DNA of 64,000 nucleotides from Escherichia phage LH2. Shown here piece after piece: positions 154-57,875 of this stretch. Under the pieces are notes generated by a model. The model saw nothing but the letters and a program-made list of their open reading frames with translations, did not search any database and was not told the DNA's origin. The DNA lies in sequence record OQ378934.1; one strand, given 5' to 3'. Made by a program: the position numbers and the translations under genes. The stretch's first letter is position 1. Every line of letters starts with the position of its first letter.

Positions 154-684
<531 letters not shown>

Positions 685-2179: not shown

Positions 2180-2542
2180 ATGAAAGCATATCAAATTCTT
2201 GAAGGCACGCATAAAGGTACTATTTATTTTGAAGACGGTATTCAAGCACGAATTATTGTCTCTAAAACCTTTAAAGAGGACTCTTTTGTAGACCCAGAAA
2301 TTTTCTATGGTTTGCATGCCCGTGAAATTGAAATTGAGCAACAGCCTACAGTTAAAATTGAAGGTGGTCAACACCTGAACGTTAACGTTCTGCGTCGTGA
2401 AACTCTGGAAGATGCAGTTAAGCATCCGGAAAAATATCCGCAGCTGACCATCCGTGTATCCGGTTATGCAGTTCGCTTTAACTCTCTGACTCCGGAACAG
2501 CAGCGCGACGTTATCGCTCGTACCTTCACCGAGAGTTTGTAA
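2180..2542 (+). CDS. Autonomous glycyl radical cofactor (GrcA/YfiD-like; equivalent of T4 Y06I)
   Basis: C-terminal ...[59 protein letters not shown] carries the glycyl radical motif RVSGYAVRF; SD GAGG before ATG 2180. Confidence 0.85.
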
Positions 2543-2763
2543 TGGCAAAGATAATTATTGAAGGTTCTGAAGATGTGCTAAATGCTTTCGCCGAATGGTT
2601 TAGTAATTCAGGCGAACAGCAATTTAATGAAGCGTGGACCATGGGTGATATTGATGGAATTTATCCTACGACAGAAATTTCTGTTCAAGGATATGGCATT
2701 CATGAACCTATTCGTTTAGTTGAATATGATTTGGGAACGGGTGAGGAAGTAGAATATGATTGA
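2542..2763 (+). CDS. Hypothetical protein
   Basis: 73-aa ORF, start overlaps upstream stop. Confidence 0.5.
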   Translation: MAKIIIEGSEDVLNAFAEWFSNSGEQQFNEAWTMGDIDGIYPTTEISVQGYGIHEPIRLVEYDLGTGEEVEYD

Positions 2764-3022
2764 AGATATTAAGGGTTATAAGCCACATACTGAAGAGAAA
2801 ATCGGTAAAGTGAATGCTATCAAAGACGCTGAAGTTCGTTTAGGACTTATCTTTGATGCTTTATACGATGAATTCTGGGAAGCACTAGATAATTGTGAAG
2901 ACTGTGAATTCGCGAAGAATTATGCTGAAAGCCTCGATCAGTTAACTATTGCTAAAACGAAACTCAAAGAAGCTAGTATGTGGGCTTGTCGTGCTGTGTT
3001 CCAACCAGAGGAAAAATATTAA
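2756..3022 (+). CDS. Hypothetical protein
   Basis: 88-aa ORF, overlaps neighbours by a few nt. Confidence 0.5.
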
Positions 3023-3300
3023 TGGCTCAATTAAGCGCAGGGTTTGGTTATGAGTATTATACTGCCCCTCGTCGTGTATCTGTTGTTCCTAAGAAAATTC
3101 AAAGTCTTGATGACTTCCAGGAAGTAGTCCGTAAAGCTTTCCAGGACTACGCACGTTATCTTAAAGAAGATTCACAGGACTGTCTCGAAGAAGATGAAAT
3201 TGCTTACTATGAGCAGCGTCTTGAACAGCTTAAAAACTTACATGAGGTTCGTGCAGAAGTTACAAAGTCTATGAATAAATTGATTAGATTTAAAGAATAA
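3022..3300 (+). CDS. Hypothetical protein
   Basis: Internal ATG at 3022 overlapping upstream TAA; 92 aa ([13 protein letters not shown]...). Confidence 0.5.
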
Positions 3301-6163: not shown

Positions 6164-6171
6164 TATAAATA
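6164..6171 (+). promoter_or_regulatory. Late promoter-like motif TATAAATA
   Basis: Exact octamer about 25 nt upstream of the ATG at 6197. Confidence 0.4.
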
Positions 6172-18390: not shown

Positions 18391-18924
18391 CAATTGAAAA
18401 AGAAATTGAAGGATTGATTCATAAAACTAATAAAGACCTTTTGAACGAGAATGCTAATAAAGATTCTCGTGTTTTTCCAACTCAACGGGACCTTATGGCT
18501 GGTATTGTGTCTAAACACATTGCCAAAAATATGGTTCCGTCTTTTATTATGAAAGCGCATGAAAGCGGAATTATTCACGTGCACGATATTGATTATTCCC
18601 CTGCTCTTCCATTTACTAATTGCTGTTTAGTCGATTTAAAGGGGATGCTTGAGAATGGATTTAAATTAGGCAATGCTCAAATTGAAACGCCTAAATCGAT
18701 CGGTGTTGCTACTGCAATTATGGCACAAATTACTGCACAGGTTGCTTCACATCAGTACGGCGGAACGACTTTTGCTAATGTAGATAAAGTACTTTCTCCT
18801 TATGTTAAACGCACCTATGCAAAACATATTGATGATGCAGAAAAATGGCAAATCGCTGATGCGTTGAATTATGCTCAATCTAAAACAGAAAAAGATGTCT
18901 ATGACGCGTTCCAGGCGTATGAGT
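18387..18924 (+). CDS. nrdD: Anaerobic ribonucleotide reductase NrdD, exon 1
   Basis: Class III RNR N-terminal region; ORF runs into a stop inside the intron; exon ends with U at 18924. Confidence 0.85.
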
Positions 18925-19135
18925 TAATTTAATTCAGGCTCATGTAAAACCGGTCTAAACGGGGAACCTCTCTAGTAGACAATCCCGTGCTAAATGTTCT
19001 TTTGAACTAAATGCCTAACGACTAACCGTGATGAATGTAGCGGTGTAGAATAGAAGCTAATGCTATTCGAAACGGCCGGCATCGAAAGATGAAGATATAG
19101 TCTAATCTGCATGGCGACATGCAGCAGTCATCTTG

Positions 19136-19143
19136 TATAAATA
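19136..19143 (+). promoter_or_regulatory. Late promoter-like TATAAATA inside the intron, upstream of the intron ORF
   Basis: Exact octamer about 30 nt upstream of ATG 19173. Confidence 0.45.
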
Positions 19144-42123: not shown

Positions 42124-43551
42124 GTGGTAGAAATTATTCTTTCTCATCTCATATTTGATCAAGCTTATTTTTCAAAAGTTTGGCCATATATGGATTCAGA
42201 ATATTTTGAAAGTGGTCCAGCTAAAAATACATTCAAATTAATTAAATCTCATGTCAATGAGTACCATAGCGTTCCATCTATTAATGCGTTAAATGTTGCG
42301 TTAGAAAATAGTTCATTTACTGAAACAGAATATTCTGGTGTAAAAACACTTATTTCGAAACTAACCGATTCTCCAGAAGACCACAGCTGGTTAGTAAAAG
42401 AAACAGAAAAATATGTTCAGCAAAGGGCGATGTTTAATGCTACGTCTAAAATAATTGAAATTCAAACTAATGCTGAGCTTCCTCCGGAAAAACGAAATAA
42501 GAAAATGCCAGATGTAGGTGCTATTCCTGACATCATGCGCCAAGCATTATCAATTTCATTTGATAGTTACGTTGGTCATGATTGGATGGATGACTACGAA
42601 GCACGTTGGCTATCTTATATGAATAAAGCTCGTAAGGTTCCATTTAAACTCAAAATTCTAAATAAAATTACTAAAGGCGGAGCTGAAACTGGAACACTGA
42701 ACGTTTTAATGGCTGGTGTTAACGTCGGTAAGTCATTAGGTCTGTGTTCATTGGCAGCAGATTATTTGCAGCTCGGACATAATGTTCTTTACATTTCCAT
42801 GGAAATGGCTGAAGAAGTTTGTGCTAAACGTATTGACGCTAATATGCTTGATGTTTCTCTTGATGACATTGATGATGGGCATATTTCTTACGCTGAATAT
42901 AAAGGAAAAATGGAAAAATGGCGTGAGAAATCTACTCTTGGTCGTTTAATCGTTAAACAGTATCCTACTGGTGGAGCAGATGCTAACACATTCAGGTCTC
43001 TCTTGAATGAATTGAAGCTCAAGAAGAATTTTGTTCCAACAATCATTATTGTCGACTATCTAGGTATTTGTAAATCTTGCCGCATTAGAGTTTATTCAGA
43101 AAATAGTTACACAACTGTTAAAGCTATTGCAGAAGAATTGCGTGCTCTGGCTGTTGAAACCGAAACTGTTCTTTGGACTGCAGCACAGGTTGGTAAACAA
43201 GCTTGGGATTCTTCTGATGTTAACATGAGTGATATCGCAGAATCTGCCGGTCTTCCAGCAACAGCTGATTTTATGCTTGCGGTCATTGAAACCGAGGAGC
43301 TAGCAGCTGCTGAACAACAACTCATTAAGCAAATCAAATCACGATATGGTGATAAGAATAAATGGAATAAGTTTTTGATGGGTGTTCAAAAAGGAAATCA
43401 GAAATGGGTAGAAATTGAACAAGATTCTACTCCAACTGAAGTGAACGAAGTAGCAGGTTCACAACAGATTCAGGCTGAACAGAATCGCTATCAAAGAAAT
43501 GAATCTACTCGAGCCCAGTTAGATGCTTTGGCAAATGAATTAAAATTTTAG
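42124..43551 (+). CDS. 41: Replicative DNA helicase gp41 (DnaB-like)
   Basis: 475 aa; GTG start after SD AAGGAG; Walker A GVNVGKS. Confidence 0.92.
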   Translation: MVEIILSHLIFDQAYFSKVWPYMDSEYFESGPAKNTFKLIKSHVNEYHSVPSINALNVALENSSFTETEYSGVKTLISKLTDSPEDHSWLVKETEKYVQQRAMFNATSKIIEIQTNAELPPEKRNKKMPDVGAIPDIMRQALSISFDSYVGHDWMDDYEARWLSYMNKARKVPFKLKILNKITKGGAETGTLNVLMAGVNVGKSLGLCSLAADYLQLGHNVLYISMEMAEEVCAKRIDANMLDVSLDDIDDGHISYAEYKGKMEKWREKSTLGRLIVKQYPTGGADANTFRSLLNELKLKKNFVPTIIIVDYLGICKSCRIRVYSENSYTTVKAIAEELRALAVETETVLWTAAQVGKQAWDSSDVNMSDIAESAGLPATADFMLAVIETEELAAAEQQLIKQIKSRYGDKNKWNKFLMGVQKGNQKWVEIEQDSTPTEVNEVAGSQQIQAEQNRYQRNESTRAQLDALANELKF

Positions 43552-44940: not shown

Positions 44941-45969
44941 ATGTCATCAATACCTTGGATTGATAATGAGTTTGCATACCGTGCATTAGCTCATTTACCT
45001 AAATTCACACAAGTAAATAATAGTTCAACTTTTAAATTGCGGTTTAGATGTCCTGTTTGTGGAGATTCAAAAACCGACCAAAATAAAGCCCGTGGATGGT
45101 ATTATGGTGATAATAATGAAGGAAATATTCATTGTTATAACTGTAACTATCATGCACCAATCGGAATATATCTAAAGGAGTTTGAACCTGATTTATATCG
45201 TGAGTATATCTTTGAAATAAGAAAAGAAAAAGGTAAAAGTCGTCCAGTAGAAAAACCTAAAGAACTTCCTAAACAACCTGAGAAGAAAATAATTAAATCT
45301 CTTCCGTCATGTGTTAGATTAGATAAACTGGCGGAAGGCCATCCAATTATAAAATATGTAAAAGCTCGCTGTATTCCAAAGGATAAATGGAAATATCTTT
45401 GGTTTACAACCGAATGGCCTAAATTAGTTAATAGCATAGCACCAGGAACATATAAAAAGGAAATACCTGAGCCTCGTCTTGTTATTCCAATTTATAATGC
45501 TAATGGAAAAGCTGAGTCTTTTCAAGGACGCGCATTAAAGAAAGATGCTCCTCAAAAATATATTACCATCAAAGCTTATCCTGAGGCAACAAAAATCTAT
45601 GGTGTTGAACGGGTTAAAGATGGTGATGTATATGTTCTAGAAGGACCTATAGATTCACTTTTTATTGAAAATGGTATAGCTATTACAGGTGGTCAATTAG
45701 ACCTAGAAATTGTTCCATTTAAAGATAGACGTGTATGGGTTTTAGATAATGAACCTCGTCATCCTGACACTATTAAACGAATGACTAAATTAGTTGATGC
45801 AGGAGAAAGGGTTATGTTTTGGGACAAATCTCCCTGGAAATCAAAAGATGTTAATGATATGATTAGAAAGGAAGGTGCAACCCCTGAGCAAATTATGGAA
45901 TATATGAAAAATAATATTGCGCAGGGGTTGATGGCTAAAATGCGGCTATCTAAATATGCTAAGATTTAA
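44941..45969 (+). CDS. 61: DNA primase gp61
   Basis: 342 aa; Zn-ribbon CPVCGDS...CYNC; TOPRIM-like core. Confidence 0.92.
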   Translation: MSSIPWIDNEFAYRALAHLPKFTQVNNSSTFKLRFRCPVCGDSKTDQNKARGWYYGDNNEGNIHCYNCNYHAPIGIYLKEFEPDLYREYIFEIRKEKGKSRPVEKPKELPKQPEKKIIKSLPSCVRLDKLAEGHPIIKYVKARCIPKDKWKYLWFTTEWPKLVNSIAPGTYKKEIPEPRLVIPIYNANGKAESFQGRALKKDAPQKYITIKAYPEATKIYGVERVKDGDVYVLEGPIDSLFIENGIAITGGQLDLEIVPFKDRRVWVLDNEPRHPDTIKRMTKLVDAGERVMFWDKSPWKSKDVNDMIRKEGATPEQIMEYMKNNIAQGLMAKMRLSKYAKI

Positions 45970-46166
45970 ATTAACCCAACTAAAGCAAATGCTAAATCTA
46001 CGAATGTATCAAGAGTAATTACTGGAATACTAACGCCATGAGCAATAGCAACTGGCGATAAAACAAAATTCCAAAGTAAAATTCCTATCATAGCAGAAAT
46101 AGTAAAAGCTATACGTTTTTTATTACCTTTGATGGCATTAACAAGTGCCATTAATTTTTGTACCAT
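45966..46166 (-). CDS. Small membrane protein encoded on the opposite strand
   Basis: 66 aa, two hydrophobic segments; strong SD (AAGGAGG) 6 nt before ATG on the minus strand; convergent with 61. Confidence 0.55.
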   Translation of the reverse strand: MVQKLMALVNAIKGNKKRIAFTISAMIGILLWNFVLSPVAIAHGVSIPVITLDTFVDLAFALVGLI

Positions 46167-46179
46167 ATGTCCTCCTTAT

Positions 46180-46203
46180 TGCTTTATATATTTATTGTAT
46201 AAT
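46180..46203 (+). promoter_or_regulatory. Candidate MotA-dependent middle promoter upstream of the HNH gene
   Basis: tgcttta 46180-46186; tataat 46198-46203. Confidence 0.4.
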
Positions 46204-46236
46204 TAATCTACTAACCAATGAATTGAAAGGATATAT

Positions 46237-46887
46237 GTGAATTACCAAAAAATTTACTCGGCTTTAATTACAAAAGCTAAATGCCGGCATCTTGGCGGAT
46301 ATAAAGAACGCCATCATATAATTCCTAGATGTATAGGAGGAGCAGATGACAAAAACAATCTTGTTGAGTTAACTGCGCGTGAGCATTTTATAGCTCATAG
46401 ATTATTAACTAAAATATATCCAGATGTGAGAGGATTGCATTATGCTGTAAATTTAATGCGATATAATAAAGGTGTTAAATTAACAAGTAGATTAATAGAA
46501 ACTCTTAAAATCCAAAACTCTGTTCTTTTCTCGGGTGAAAATAATCCTAGATATGGCAAGCCGTCATGGATTAAAGGCAAAAAGACCCCAGAAGAAACTA
46601 AAGCCAAAATGCGTCTAGCTCATAAAGGTAAAATTATATCCGATGAAGCCAAGGCTAATATGAGTAAAGCCCGAAAAGGAAGATTTAGCGGTAAAAATTC
46701 GCCTCGATACGGTTTACCAAATCCTAGGCGAGGAGAAATATGGAATAGTTATGATGCGCTTTATGAATTATGGGTTTATAATAATAGACCTAAGCGCACA
46801 AAATTTAATAAAATAGCTGTCAAGGCAGGTTATCCTAATATCTGCTATAGACATATGATAGAAAACTTCATAAGAAAGGAAAAATAA
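46237..46887 (+). CDS. Freestanding HNH homing endonuclease (Mob-like)
   Basis: GTG start; HNH motif ERHHIIPRCIGGADDKNNLVELTAREH; NUMOD3-like repeats; between 61 and 56. Confidence 0.75.
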   Translation: MNYQKIYSALITKAKCRHLGGYKERHHIIPRCIGGADDKNNLVELTAREHFIAHRLLTKIYPDVRGLHYAVNLMRYNKGVKLTSRLIETLKIQNSVLFSGENNPRYGKPSWIKGKKTPEETKAKMRLAHKGKIISDEAKANMSKARKGRFSGKNSPRYGLPNPRRGEIWNSYDALYELWVYNNRPKRTKFNKIAVKAGYPNICYRHMIENFIRKEK

Positions 46888-46888
46888 C

Positions 46889-47407
46889 ATGCCACATTTC
46901 AACGAATGTAGTCATCTGATCGAAGGCGCTGATAAAGCTCAAAATGAATACTGGGATATTCTCGGTGATGAAAAAGACCCGCTGCAGGTTATGCTTGATA
47001 TGCAGAAATCTTTGCAGGTTCGTTTAGCTAAAGATAAACCTGAATATAACCGTCATCCTGATGATTTGGCTACTGCAGGTGAAGTTGTTGATTGGCTGCG
47101 TAATCAGAAAGATTATATTGACGATGAATTCCGTGAACTTCTAACTTCTCTTGGCGGTATGAGCAATGGCGAAAAAGATGCATCTGCTGTATGGAAGCCT
47201 TGGAAGTCACAGCATGGTGAACGCCGTGAAACTCTAATTACTGATTTGTCTCCACAAGACCAGTTGGAAATTAAATTCGAAATGATTGATATTCTTCATT
47301 TCGTTCTGAACATGTTCCAAGGTCTCGGCCTTACTGCTGAAGAAATCTTTAAACTTTATTATCTGAAGAATGCTGAAAACTTCGCTCGTCAAGACCGAGG
47401 TTATTAA
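46889..47407 (+). CDS. 56: dCTP pyrophosphatase gp56
   Basis: 172 aa; MPHFNECSHLIEGADKAQNEYWDILGDEKDPLQVMLDMQ... matches T4 gp56 as recalled. Confidence 0.88.
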   Translation: MPHFNECSHLIEGADKAQNEYWDILGDEKDPLQVMLDMQKSLQVRLAKDKPEYNRHPDDLATAGEVVDWLRNQKDYIDDEFRELLTSLGGMSNGEKDASAVWKPWKSQHGERRETLITDLSPQDQLEIKFEMIDILHFVLNMFQGLGLTAEEIFKLYYLKNAENFARQDRGY

Positions 47408-47451: not shown

Positions 47452-47459
47452 TATAAATA
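47452..47459 (+). promoter_or_regulatory. Late promoter TATAAATA for soc
   Basis: Exact octamer about 30 nt upstream of soc ATG. Confidence 0.6.
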
Positions 47460-47489: not shown

Positions 47490-47735
47490 ATGGCTAGTAC
47501 TCGCGGTTATGTTAACATCAAAACATTTGAGCAGAAATTAGATGGAAATAAGAAAATTGAAGGAAAGGAAATTTCTGTAGCTTTCCCTCTTTATTCTGAC
47601 GTTCACAAAATTTCTGGCGCTCATTACCAGACATTCCCTTCAGAAAAAGCAGCATATACTACTGTATATGAAGAAAATCAACGTGATGCATGGATTGCTG
47701 CAAACGAAGATTTGTGGAAAGTAACTGGTGAATAA
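47490..47735 (+). CDS. soc: Small outer capsid protein Soc
   Basis: 81-aa ORF; MASTRGYVNIKTFEQKLDGNKKIEGKEISVAFPLYSDVHKISGAHYQTF... matches T4 Soc. Confidence 0.88.
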   Translation: MASTRGYVNIKTFEQKLDGNKKIEGKEISVAFPLYSDVHKISGAHYQTFPSEKAAYTTVYEENQRDAWIAANEDLWKVTGE

Positions 47736-57324: not shown

Positions 57325-57501
57325 ATGCCTCTTTATGATTATAAATGTCAATCCAAAGACTGCGCAAAAGAATACGAAAAAATCAAGAAAATTTCTGAAA
57401 GGGATACTGATGTATGTCCTGATTGTCATCGGATTGCTATTCGGTTAGTTTCCGCTCCTAAGCATGTGAATGGTGGATTTTACGACTTACTTAAAGGGTG
57501 A
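57325..57501 (+). CDS. FmdB-family-like zinc-ribbon protein (58 aa, below ORF-track cutoff)
   Basis: MPLYDYKC..C...CPDC pattern typical of FmdB-type zinc ribbons. Confidence 0.5.
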   Translation: MPLYDYKCQSKDCAKEYEKIKKISERDTDVCPDCHRIAIRLVSAPKHVNGGFYDLLKG

Positions 57502-57503
57502 TT

Positions 57504-57875
57504 ATGTTTAAAATCGGTAAGAAATATCGTGTTCGCGAAGGTGAAGAAAAGAAATATCTACTTTCTTCTATTTATAGGAATGGTTCTATTAATGCCGTAA
57601 TATCTACAAGTGAATTTATCGTTGAAGATATGAAAGGTAATAATGTTACAATGATTAGTACATCATCTGGAAATGATGGAAAAATTCTTCACAGTTTTCA
57701 GAGTAATGTTCTAATTTATGATGAAGAATTTGACTTCTTCGAAGAAGTTCCTGAAGATTTTGATTTTGGATGCACCATCACTATGAAATCTGGCGACCCT
57801 CTTTCTTTTACAGTTAAAGATGAAAGAAGTCGCTTGAGAATTATTAGTCTCCTTCAAGCCATTAAATTTGAGTGA
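57504..57875 (+). CDS. Hypothetical protein
   Basis: ATG 57504; 123 aa. Confidence 0.5.
   Translation: MFKIGKKYRVREGEEKKYLLSSIYRNGSINAVISTSEFIVEDMKGNNVTMISTSSGNDGKILHSFQSNVLIYDEEFDFFEEVPEDFDFGCTITMKSGDPLSFTVKDERSRLRIISLLQAIKFE

Follow-up and report, generated by a model that had tools for sequence, protein, structure and literature searches.

Why does one small reading frame run against its neighbours among the early genes of a T4-type phage, and is it a gene at all? The locus lies in a stretch of 64,000 nucleotides (nt) from Escherichia phage LH2 (sequence record OQ378934.1), called the window in the following, in which the early region of this phage, a Tequatrovirus, is given with the early (counter-clockwise) strand set as plus. 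An earlier note on this DNA had pointed to a minus-strand open reading frame (ORF) for a membrane protein of 66 amino acids (aa) that converges with the primase gene 61, and had proposed that it is transcribed separately and possibly late and that it may have arrived with the adjacent HNH endonuclease gene. We conclude that this ORF most probably represents a genuine accessory gene, inherited vertically from a Tevenvirinae ancestor and located on the late (clockwise) strand between genes 61 and 56. This means that the first observation was sound, its link with a mobile endonuclease was not. The elements of the small gene itself are:

45966..46166, minus strand: coding sequence (CDS) of the 66-aa small membrane protein (from the ORF listing; PHROG 2024; homologue of RB32 ORF030w and VR7ORF033w)
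45966..45969: TTAA, tail-to-tail overlap of the stop codons of gene 61 and the small gene (read from the sequence)
46171..46177, minus strand: Shine-Dalgarno site AAGGAGG, 4 nt before the ATG (read from the sequence)
46189..46196, minus strand: box AATAAATA of the T4 late-promoter type, 22 nt before the ATG, the A(-13) variant of TATAAATA

The ORF is real and runs from an ATG start to a TAA stop, and its convergence with gene 61 ends in the 4-nt overlap of both stops, where the palindrome TTAA provides TAA to both strands. The same 4-nt overlap with gene 61 is found in Mosigvirus, Moonvirus and Gelderlandvirus; in Jiaodavirus and Dhakavirus the stops do not overlap and are separated by an 18-nt gap with a GC hairpin. 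Two details of the first description had to be corrected. The Shine-Dalgarno site is present, but it is spaced from the ATG by 4 nt (ACAT) and not by 6 nt, and the ORF does not abut the HNH gene, the divergent starts being kept apart by a 70-nt spacer (46167-46236). The ORF is apparently the only credible opposite-strand gene in the window, as had been claimed: among the minus-strand ORFs of at least 40 aa in gaps between plus-strand ORFs, inspection of the translations revealed no other gene-like one. The close relative fPS-2 is annotated with 89 CDSs in its first 50 kb, and of these the homologue g031 alone lies on the opposite strand.

Conservation and selection of the small gene

The deduced protein matches the profile of phrog_2024 with an E-value of 1.9e-30, residues 2-66 being aligned with profile positions 1-65 of 65. 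By tblastn it was detected in 692 phage records (685 at a coverage of at least 80%), and the identities, which fall in bands from 100% to 46%, are split between 502 records with at least 80% and 189 records with less than 60%. The protein is 100% identical in three records (IME339, FL33 and GRNsp7), the T4 copy is 92% identical to the window protein, and T6 carries the ORF too. Since the primase gp61 is at least 95% identical in 501 records, a number that matches the 502 records with an ORF of at least 80% identity, the small gene appears to be near-universal in Tequatrovirus.

Between genes 61 and 56, at least nine genera of Tevenvirinae have diverged homologues (28-55% identity) that keep both slot and orientation. 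The position between primase gene 61 and dCTPase gene 56, convergent with gene 61, was found in the window, in T4, in T6 and in seven further genera, namely Mosigvirus, Gaprivervirus, Jiaodavirus, Kanagawavirus (unannotated there), Moonvirus, Gelderlandvirus and Dhakavirus. Outside this subfamily, gene 56 directly follows gene 61 in Slopekvirus and Pseudotevenvirus, where there is no space for such a gene; the annotation of Krischvirus, Biquartavirus and Lazarusvirus contains no opposite-strand gene after gene 61, and in Karamvirus EnA02 (one genome) a plus-strand gene fills the slot. This is a narrow family. Among 1.84 billion representative proteins a profile search matched six, all of them members of the family or its fragments, and no relatives of the small protein were found in Pfam, in NCBIfam or by a sequence search of the PDB. 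Foldseek searches of the PDB and BFVD gave no match outside the family either.

Pairwise ratios of non-synonymous to synonymous substitution (dN/dS) range from 0.10 to 0.30, and nine synonymous and five non-synonymous differences distinguish the gene from its T4 copy. In comparison with Mosigvirus the differences at codon positions 1, 2 and 3 amount to 31, 12 and 43, with the second position least variable, and this pattern is the signature of a translated frame. These comparisons indicate that the frame is evolving under purifying selection. Conservation, purifying selection and the retained ribosome-binding site and promoter box go far beyond chance and, at the level of sequence, mark the ORF as a genuine gene.

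Probable late expression and predicted membrane location

T4 late promoters have an 8-bp TATAAATA box at -10 and no -35 element, and among 50 listed ones 32 are perfect and nine carry A at -13 (PMC2988020). Upstream of the small gene a box of this type without a -35 element is found, and transcription from it would start at approximately 46183 and leave a leader of 17 nt. No sigma-70-like promoter was detected on the minus strand in the 70-nt spacer. Both forms of the box are under-represented in the window: AATAAATA occurs at 3 sites in 64 kb, counted on both strands, versus 15.2 +/- 4.2 in shuffles, and TATAAATA at 6 versus 10.6 +/- 3.4. Plus-strand TATAAATA boxes (at 156/169, 6164 and 47452) stand 13-30 nt before genes known to be late, and therefore the motif is predictive in this sequence. 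These perfect late-promoter boxes are:

156-176, plus strand: before the lysozyme gene e (190)
6164-6171, plus strand: before rI.-1/rI (6197/6422)
47452-47459, plus strand: before soc (47490)

The arrangement recurs in other genera. Of nine genera sampled, seven have a box xATAAATA at 12-22 nt upstream of the start, among them Tequatro-, Mosig-, Gapriver-, Jiaoda-, Kanagawa- and Dhakavirus (in the last it stands before a two-gene unit), and all nine genera examined retain a GGAG(G) core with a spacing of 4-9 nt to the start. The upstream sequences of T4 and of the window differ, because in T4 dam fills the intergenic slot that is taken by the HNH gene in the window, and only ATAAATA and the Shine-Dalgarno site are common to both. 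In T4 all early and middle transcripts are of one polarity and late transcripts of either (PMC2988020), so only late transcription fits the strand of the small gene. Separate and late transcription, as originally suspected, is the best inference from the AATAAATA box, its recurrence across genera and the strand polarity.

The opposite strand carries a signal of its own within the ORF:

46129..46164, plus strand: intrinsic terminator of the early/middle transcript of gene 61, a hairpin followed by a T tract (terminator scan)

Hairpin and T tract fall within the first 13 codons of the small gene; the stem, of 11 bp with two G-U pairs, lies in codons 5-13. The plus-strand RNA has a folding energy of -14.0 kcal/mol versus -6.0 +/- 2.2 in shuffles (z-score -3.66). 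The hairpin is also present in T4 and was annotated independently as a terminator in fPS-2; in Mosigvirus it was not found. The 5' end of the small-gene mRNA is unstructured (minus-strand fold, z-score -0.32).

For the product AlphaFold2 (shallow alignment, mean predicted local distance difference test score, pLDDT, 73) predicts helices at residues 2-13, 16-42 and 52-63. All five Lys/Arg residues are found within residues 4-18, and the only acidic residues are Asp53 and Asp57. Of the two hydrophobic segments seen originally, residues 19-42 represent a firm transmembrane helix, with a Kyte-Doolittle peak of 2.0 at residues ~19-41. The second segment (residues 45-66) is hydrophobic in the window protein (1.9) but not conserved, with values of at most 1.1 in the homologues from Jiaodavirus and Kanagawavirus; the short hydrophobic C-terminal helix is less conserved than the transmembrane helix. 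In an alignment of nine sequences W32, N33, P38, G44 and P48 are invariant, and these residues belong to the outer half of the transmembrane helix and to the loop after it. A motif scan found W-N-[FY]-x3-P-x5-G-x3-P after a basic N-terminus in every locus with the gene. The simplest topology would have the N-terminus inside, one firm span and a C-terminal helix that lies on the periplasmic face or dips back into it.

From these elements the following course of events can be proposed. The small gene would be silent early in infection, since early and middle transcription of T4 runs in the opposite direction, and transcripts of these classes would cross it in antisense up to the terminator hairpin in its first 13 codons. 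After the onset of DNA replication RNA polymerase with gp55, gp33 and gp45 would initiate at AATAAATA near 46183, giving an mRNA with a short unstructured leader of 17 nt and a strong Shine-Dalgarno site. The 66-aa product is predicted to insert in the inner membrane with its basic amphipathic N-terminal helix in the cytoplasm, a single transmembrane helix at residues ~19-42 and, at or in the periplasmic face, the conserved HG-x3-P loop and a short acidic-hydrophobic C-terminal helix. Its late timing, membrane location, conserved polar intramembrane residue and conserved periplasm-proximal motif would together suit a specific contact with another membrane protein late in infection. As the first-ranked, though tentative, guess at its function, Trp32-Asn33 in the middle of the helix and Pro38, Gly44 and Pro48 at its outer end might form a surface that contacts another membrane protein, by which the small protein tunes a late envelope event of the lysis-timing or lysis-inhibition type. 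Rather doubtful is the broader proposal of an unrecognised T-even envelope or lysis-timing component that acts via this Trp-Asn/Pro-Gly-Pro face on a membrane partner of phage or host and whose expression is in addition gated by complete complementarity to the 3' untranslated region (UTR) of the primase mRNA.

Several points weigh against this picture of a late membrane-protein gene. The T4 copy (NC_000866, 17738..17938, plus strand) has no RefSeq feature and is likewise without annotation in the T4 sequence record of 1984; its 66-aa ORF, Shine-Dalgarno site and GATAAATA box are all intact, so that most of the 309 bp that appear as a "gap" between gene 61 and dam belong to the small gene. A literature search that covered the names of the homologues, unannotated ORFs of T4, transcription maps and phrog_2024 found nothing on it. 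The late timing is based on a motif of seven or eight nt and on strand polarity, and in Moonvirus and Gelderlandvirus ATTAAATA stands in place of xATAAATA; this sequence matches the TA-to-AT variant that is mentioned as well in the review of T4 late transcription (PMC2988020). In T6 an ATT replaces the ATG start behind the same Shine-Dalgarno site, so that expression may be low there or may start at Met6. The T6 record (NC_054907; 2501-2701 of the examined stretch) begins the CDS at Met6 and names the product "putative head morphogenesis protein", which appears to have been propagated by similarity without support. As the hydrophobicity of the second segment is not conserved, one pass and a hairpin are both possible. 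Finally, no characterised homologues of the small protein were found that would support the functional guess directly.

Neighbouring genes and rival explanations

The genes around the site, together with a second hairpin that bears on the fate of the late transcript, are:

42124-43551: gene 41 helicase
between gene 41 helicase and gene 61, in the listed order around the site: dmd and sp
44941-45969: gene 61 primase
46237-46887, plus strand: HNH endonuclease with a GTG start
46889-47407: gene 56 dCTPase
47490-47735: soc
45878..45930, minus strand: possible 3' hairpin of the late transcript, tentative (fold -25 kcal/mol, z-score -3.46)

The HNH neighbour is a MobE-like free-standing homing endonuclease with NUMOD3 and HNH motifs (phrog_655), and its gene is adjacent and divergent to the small gene, as might be expected if the ORF were its cargo or partner and both had arrived together. 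This explanation has practically no probability left. A 1.6-kb query across the site matched 546 phage records at 80-99% identity (541 at 90% or more), mostly from Escherichia, Shigella and Yersinia phages and some from Klebsiella phages, and the endonuclease occupies the site in only 29 of these 546, whereas the ORF is found in approximately 690 records; T4 and T6, relatives without HNH at this site, still have it. The endonuclease gene has captured the sequence upstream of gene 56 together with its ribosome-binding region, and it ends 1 nt short of the start codon of that gene. Between the window and HNH-free T6 there are two mismatches in ~64 nt, from TCCTTTCAATTCA, the ribosome-binding region that serves gene 56 in T6 and HNH in the window, through the late box to the ORF; this means that the insertion happened outside the small gene and its promoter, ~65 nt from the ORF start. 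Another HNH copy, 78% identical, adjoins gene 56 in IME08. In Klebsiella phage Roth20 (Jiaodavirus) the HNH copy is 92.6% identical, whereas the small proteins of the window phage and of Jiaodavirus share only 29% identity, so the endonuclease moved horizontally and the ORF was inherited vertically. Judged from these comparisons the endonuclease is the mobile element and the small gene the resident. It is also very improbable that the ORF is spurious, i.e. that the site holds only the 3' UTR of gene 61, a terminator and promoters of downstream genes while the frame is open by chance. The missing annotation in T4 RefSeq and in the 1984 record would agree with this, as would the genuine plus-strand terminator inside the ORF, but the frame remains open at 28-55% aa identity across nine genera with length, motif and Shine-Dalgarno site unchanged, the selection data (dN/dS 0.1-0.3; differences at the third codon position exceeding those at the first and by far those at the second) speak for translation, and in Mosigvirus the ORF persists without the terminator.

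If the ORF is a translated gene, its main role could still be played by RNA, with an antisense late transcript shutting off primase or the gene 61 3' UTR gating the small gene, and the peptide being secondary. The overlapping stops leave no room for a terminator between the two genes, and no minus-strand intrinsic terminator for the clockwise transcript was detected by pattern within 2 kb downstream. Transcripts of gene 61 reach the plus-strand terminator only at the far side of the ORF, so that their 3' UTR covers codons 5-66 and is complementary to almost all of the small mRNA. Purifying selection at the protein level, however, argues that the peptide matters, the GC hairpin between the stops in Jiaodavirus and Dhakavirus would stop read-through, so that antisense transcription into gene 61 is not conserved, and in the window too the hairpin 40 nt downstream may terminate the small-gene transcript. 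This hairpin (45878-45930) is interrupted and lies in the C-terminal coding region of gene 61, ~40 nt past the small-gene stop; similar ones occur in T4, where G-U pairs favour the minus strand, and in T6, different ones in other genera, and conservation across genera could not be demonstrated by a covariation count. A mainly RNA-level role thus seems improbable, and distinctly unlikely, too, is that the product belongs to the holins or pinholins, which are small late membrane proteins that make the inner membrane permeable. Its small size and probable late expression would fit, as would its one or two hydrophobic helices, where an Asn places a polar group in the middle of the membrane; helix 16-42 (hydropathy 2.0) agrees with a holin transmembrane segment, and the UniProt entry for the homologue from OE5505 bears the label "Holin". 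This label is an unreviewed automatic name, though, and there is no similarity to holin families in Pfam, NCBIfam or PHROGs. The charged C-terminal tail of holins is missing, since no Lys or Arg follows residue 18 and the protein ends in the hydrophobic LAFALVGLI. From established genetics T4 lysis requires holin T, so the small protein is not a sufficient holin and is unlikely to be the holin itself.

Some further observations concern the neighbourhood and the promoter boxes in their own right. In fPS-2 a middle promoter predicted for the HNH gene shares sequence with the late box of the opposite strand. In Krischvirus KFS-EC the genes for primase and dCTPase are 590 bp apart, and this unannotated gap (2520-3107 of the examined stretch) holds an early-strand open frame that resembles homing endonucleases of the HNH/AP2 type; should it be one, the junction of genes 61 and 56 would be a recurrent landing site of mobile endonucleases. 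A perfect TATAAATA at 57569-57576 on the minus strand lies inside the plus-strand gene 57498-57875, and behind it there is only a fully overlapped minus-strand ORF of 40 aa, so that it represents either chance or an antisense late promoter. No tRNA genes were found in the window, and the single match of an Rfam scan was a plus-strand group I intron (18893-19109; RF00028, 52 bits), just downstream of which another TATAAATA box is located (19136-19143).

Annotation and relation to known phage proteins

As an entity the gene is already known: hundreds of records list a "hypothetical protein" for it, and it has a PHROG. RB32 ORF030w, VR7ORF033w and fPS-2 g031 belong to the same family and locus, i.e. 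they are the window gene itself, and no function is attached to these entries. The "Emp" protein of a Mosigvirus preprint was considered and set aside, as it is another protein (109 aa, early, beside motA). Should the reading of a late accessory gene be true, the early region of T-even phages would hold a lone clockwise gene for a late membrane protein in essentially every Tequatrovirus, and T4, among the best-studied genomes, would be without annotation for a conserved one. Work that starts from the T4 reference annotation would overlook the small gene. Because trypsin would release a hydrophobic peptide of 48 residues, standard proteomics would probably overlook the product, whether annotated or not. 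There is a modest upside: if the T4 copy proves to have a late membrane function, a missing accessory role could be revealed.

One comparison is offered by a paralogue, here designated type B (MGTLFYQIWKL...LWNLLVVPIAATQG...), which stands in tandem with the gene discussed so far (type A) and shares its W-N-x4-P-x5-G-x3-P core, strand and locus. In contrast, its N- and C-termini are unlike those of type A, and it is absent from Tequatrovirus including the window. By tblastn type B was found in 117 records, from Gapriver- and Dhakavirus, some Klebsiella and Enterobacter phages and Pectobacterium phage PM2. In VR7 (2201-~2465 of the examined stretch) it is unannotated and extends into the 3' end of gene 61. 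Decayed copies were also seen, truncated in P896 (~2194-2300) and frameshifted in Dhakavirus NC-G (473-660, both within the examined stretches). A tandem paralogue with the same core is compatible with an oligomer or with binding of a partner but is no proof of it.

With regard to expression, the late genes soc and rI.-1/rI of T4 are comparable, as they likewise have a short leader and a late box 13-30 nt before the start and are located within the early-gene block. They differ from the small gene in being encoded on the early-gene strand behind a perfect TATAAATA, whereas the small gene runs against the early genes and towards gene 61, and its box is the A(-13) variant. With regard to the product, a relation to the RI antiholin suggested by a shared F-x-LSP was tried and rejected (BLASTP E-value 0.33 over six residues, hhalign probability 1.2%). 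The T4 antiholin RI, the class II holins and the pinholin S21-68 are likewise small late inner-membrane proteins of phages, and a further likeness to RI and holins is a transmembrane helix fairly rich in Ala, Gly, Ser and Thr (~33-42% by our own residue count). RI, however, possesses a periplasmic domain, besides an N-terminal signal-anchor-release helix, and the small protein is without such a domain. Holins, finally, carry their charges in a C-terminal tail, whereas in the small protein the charge cluster is located at the N-terminus instead.

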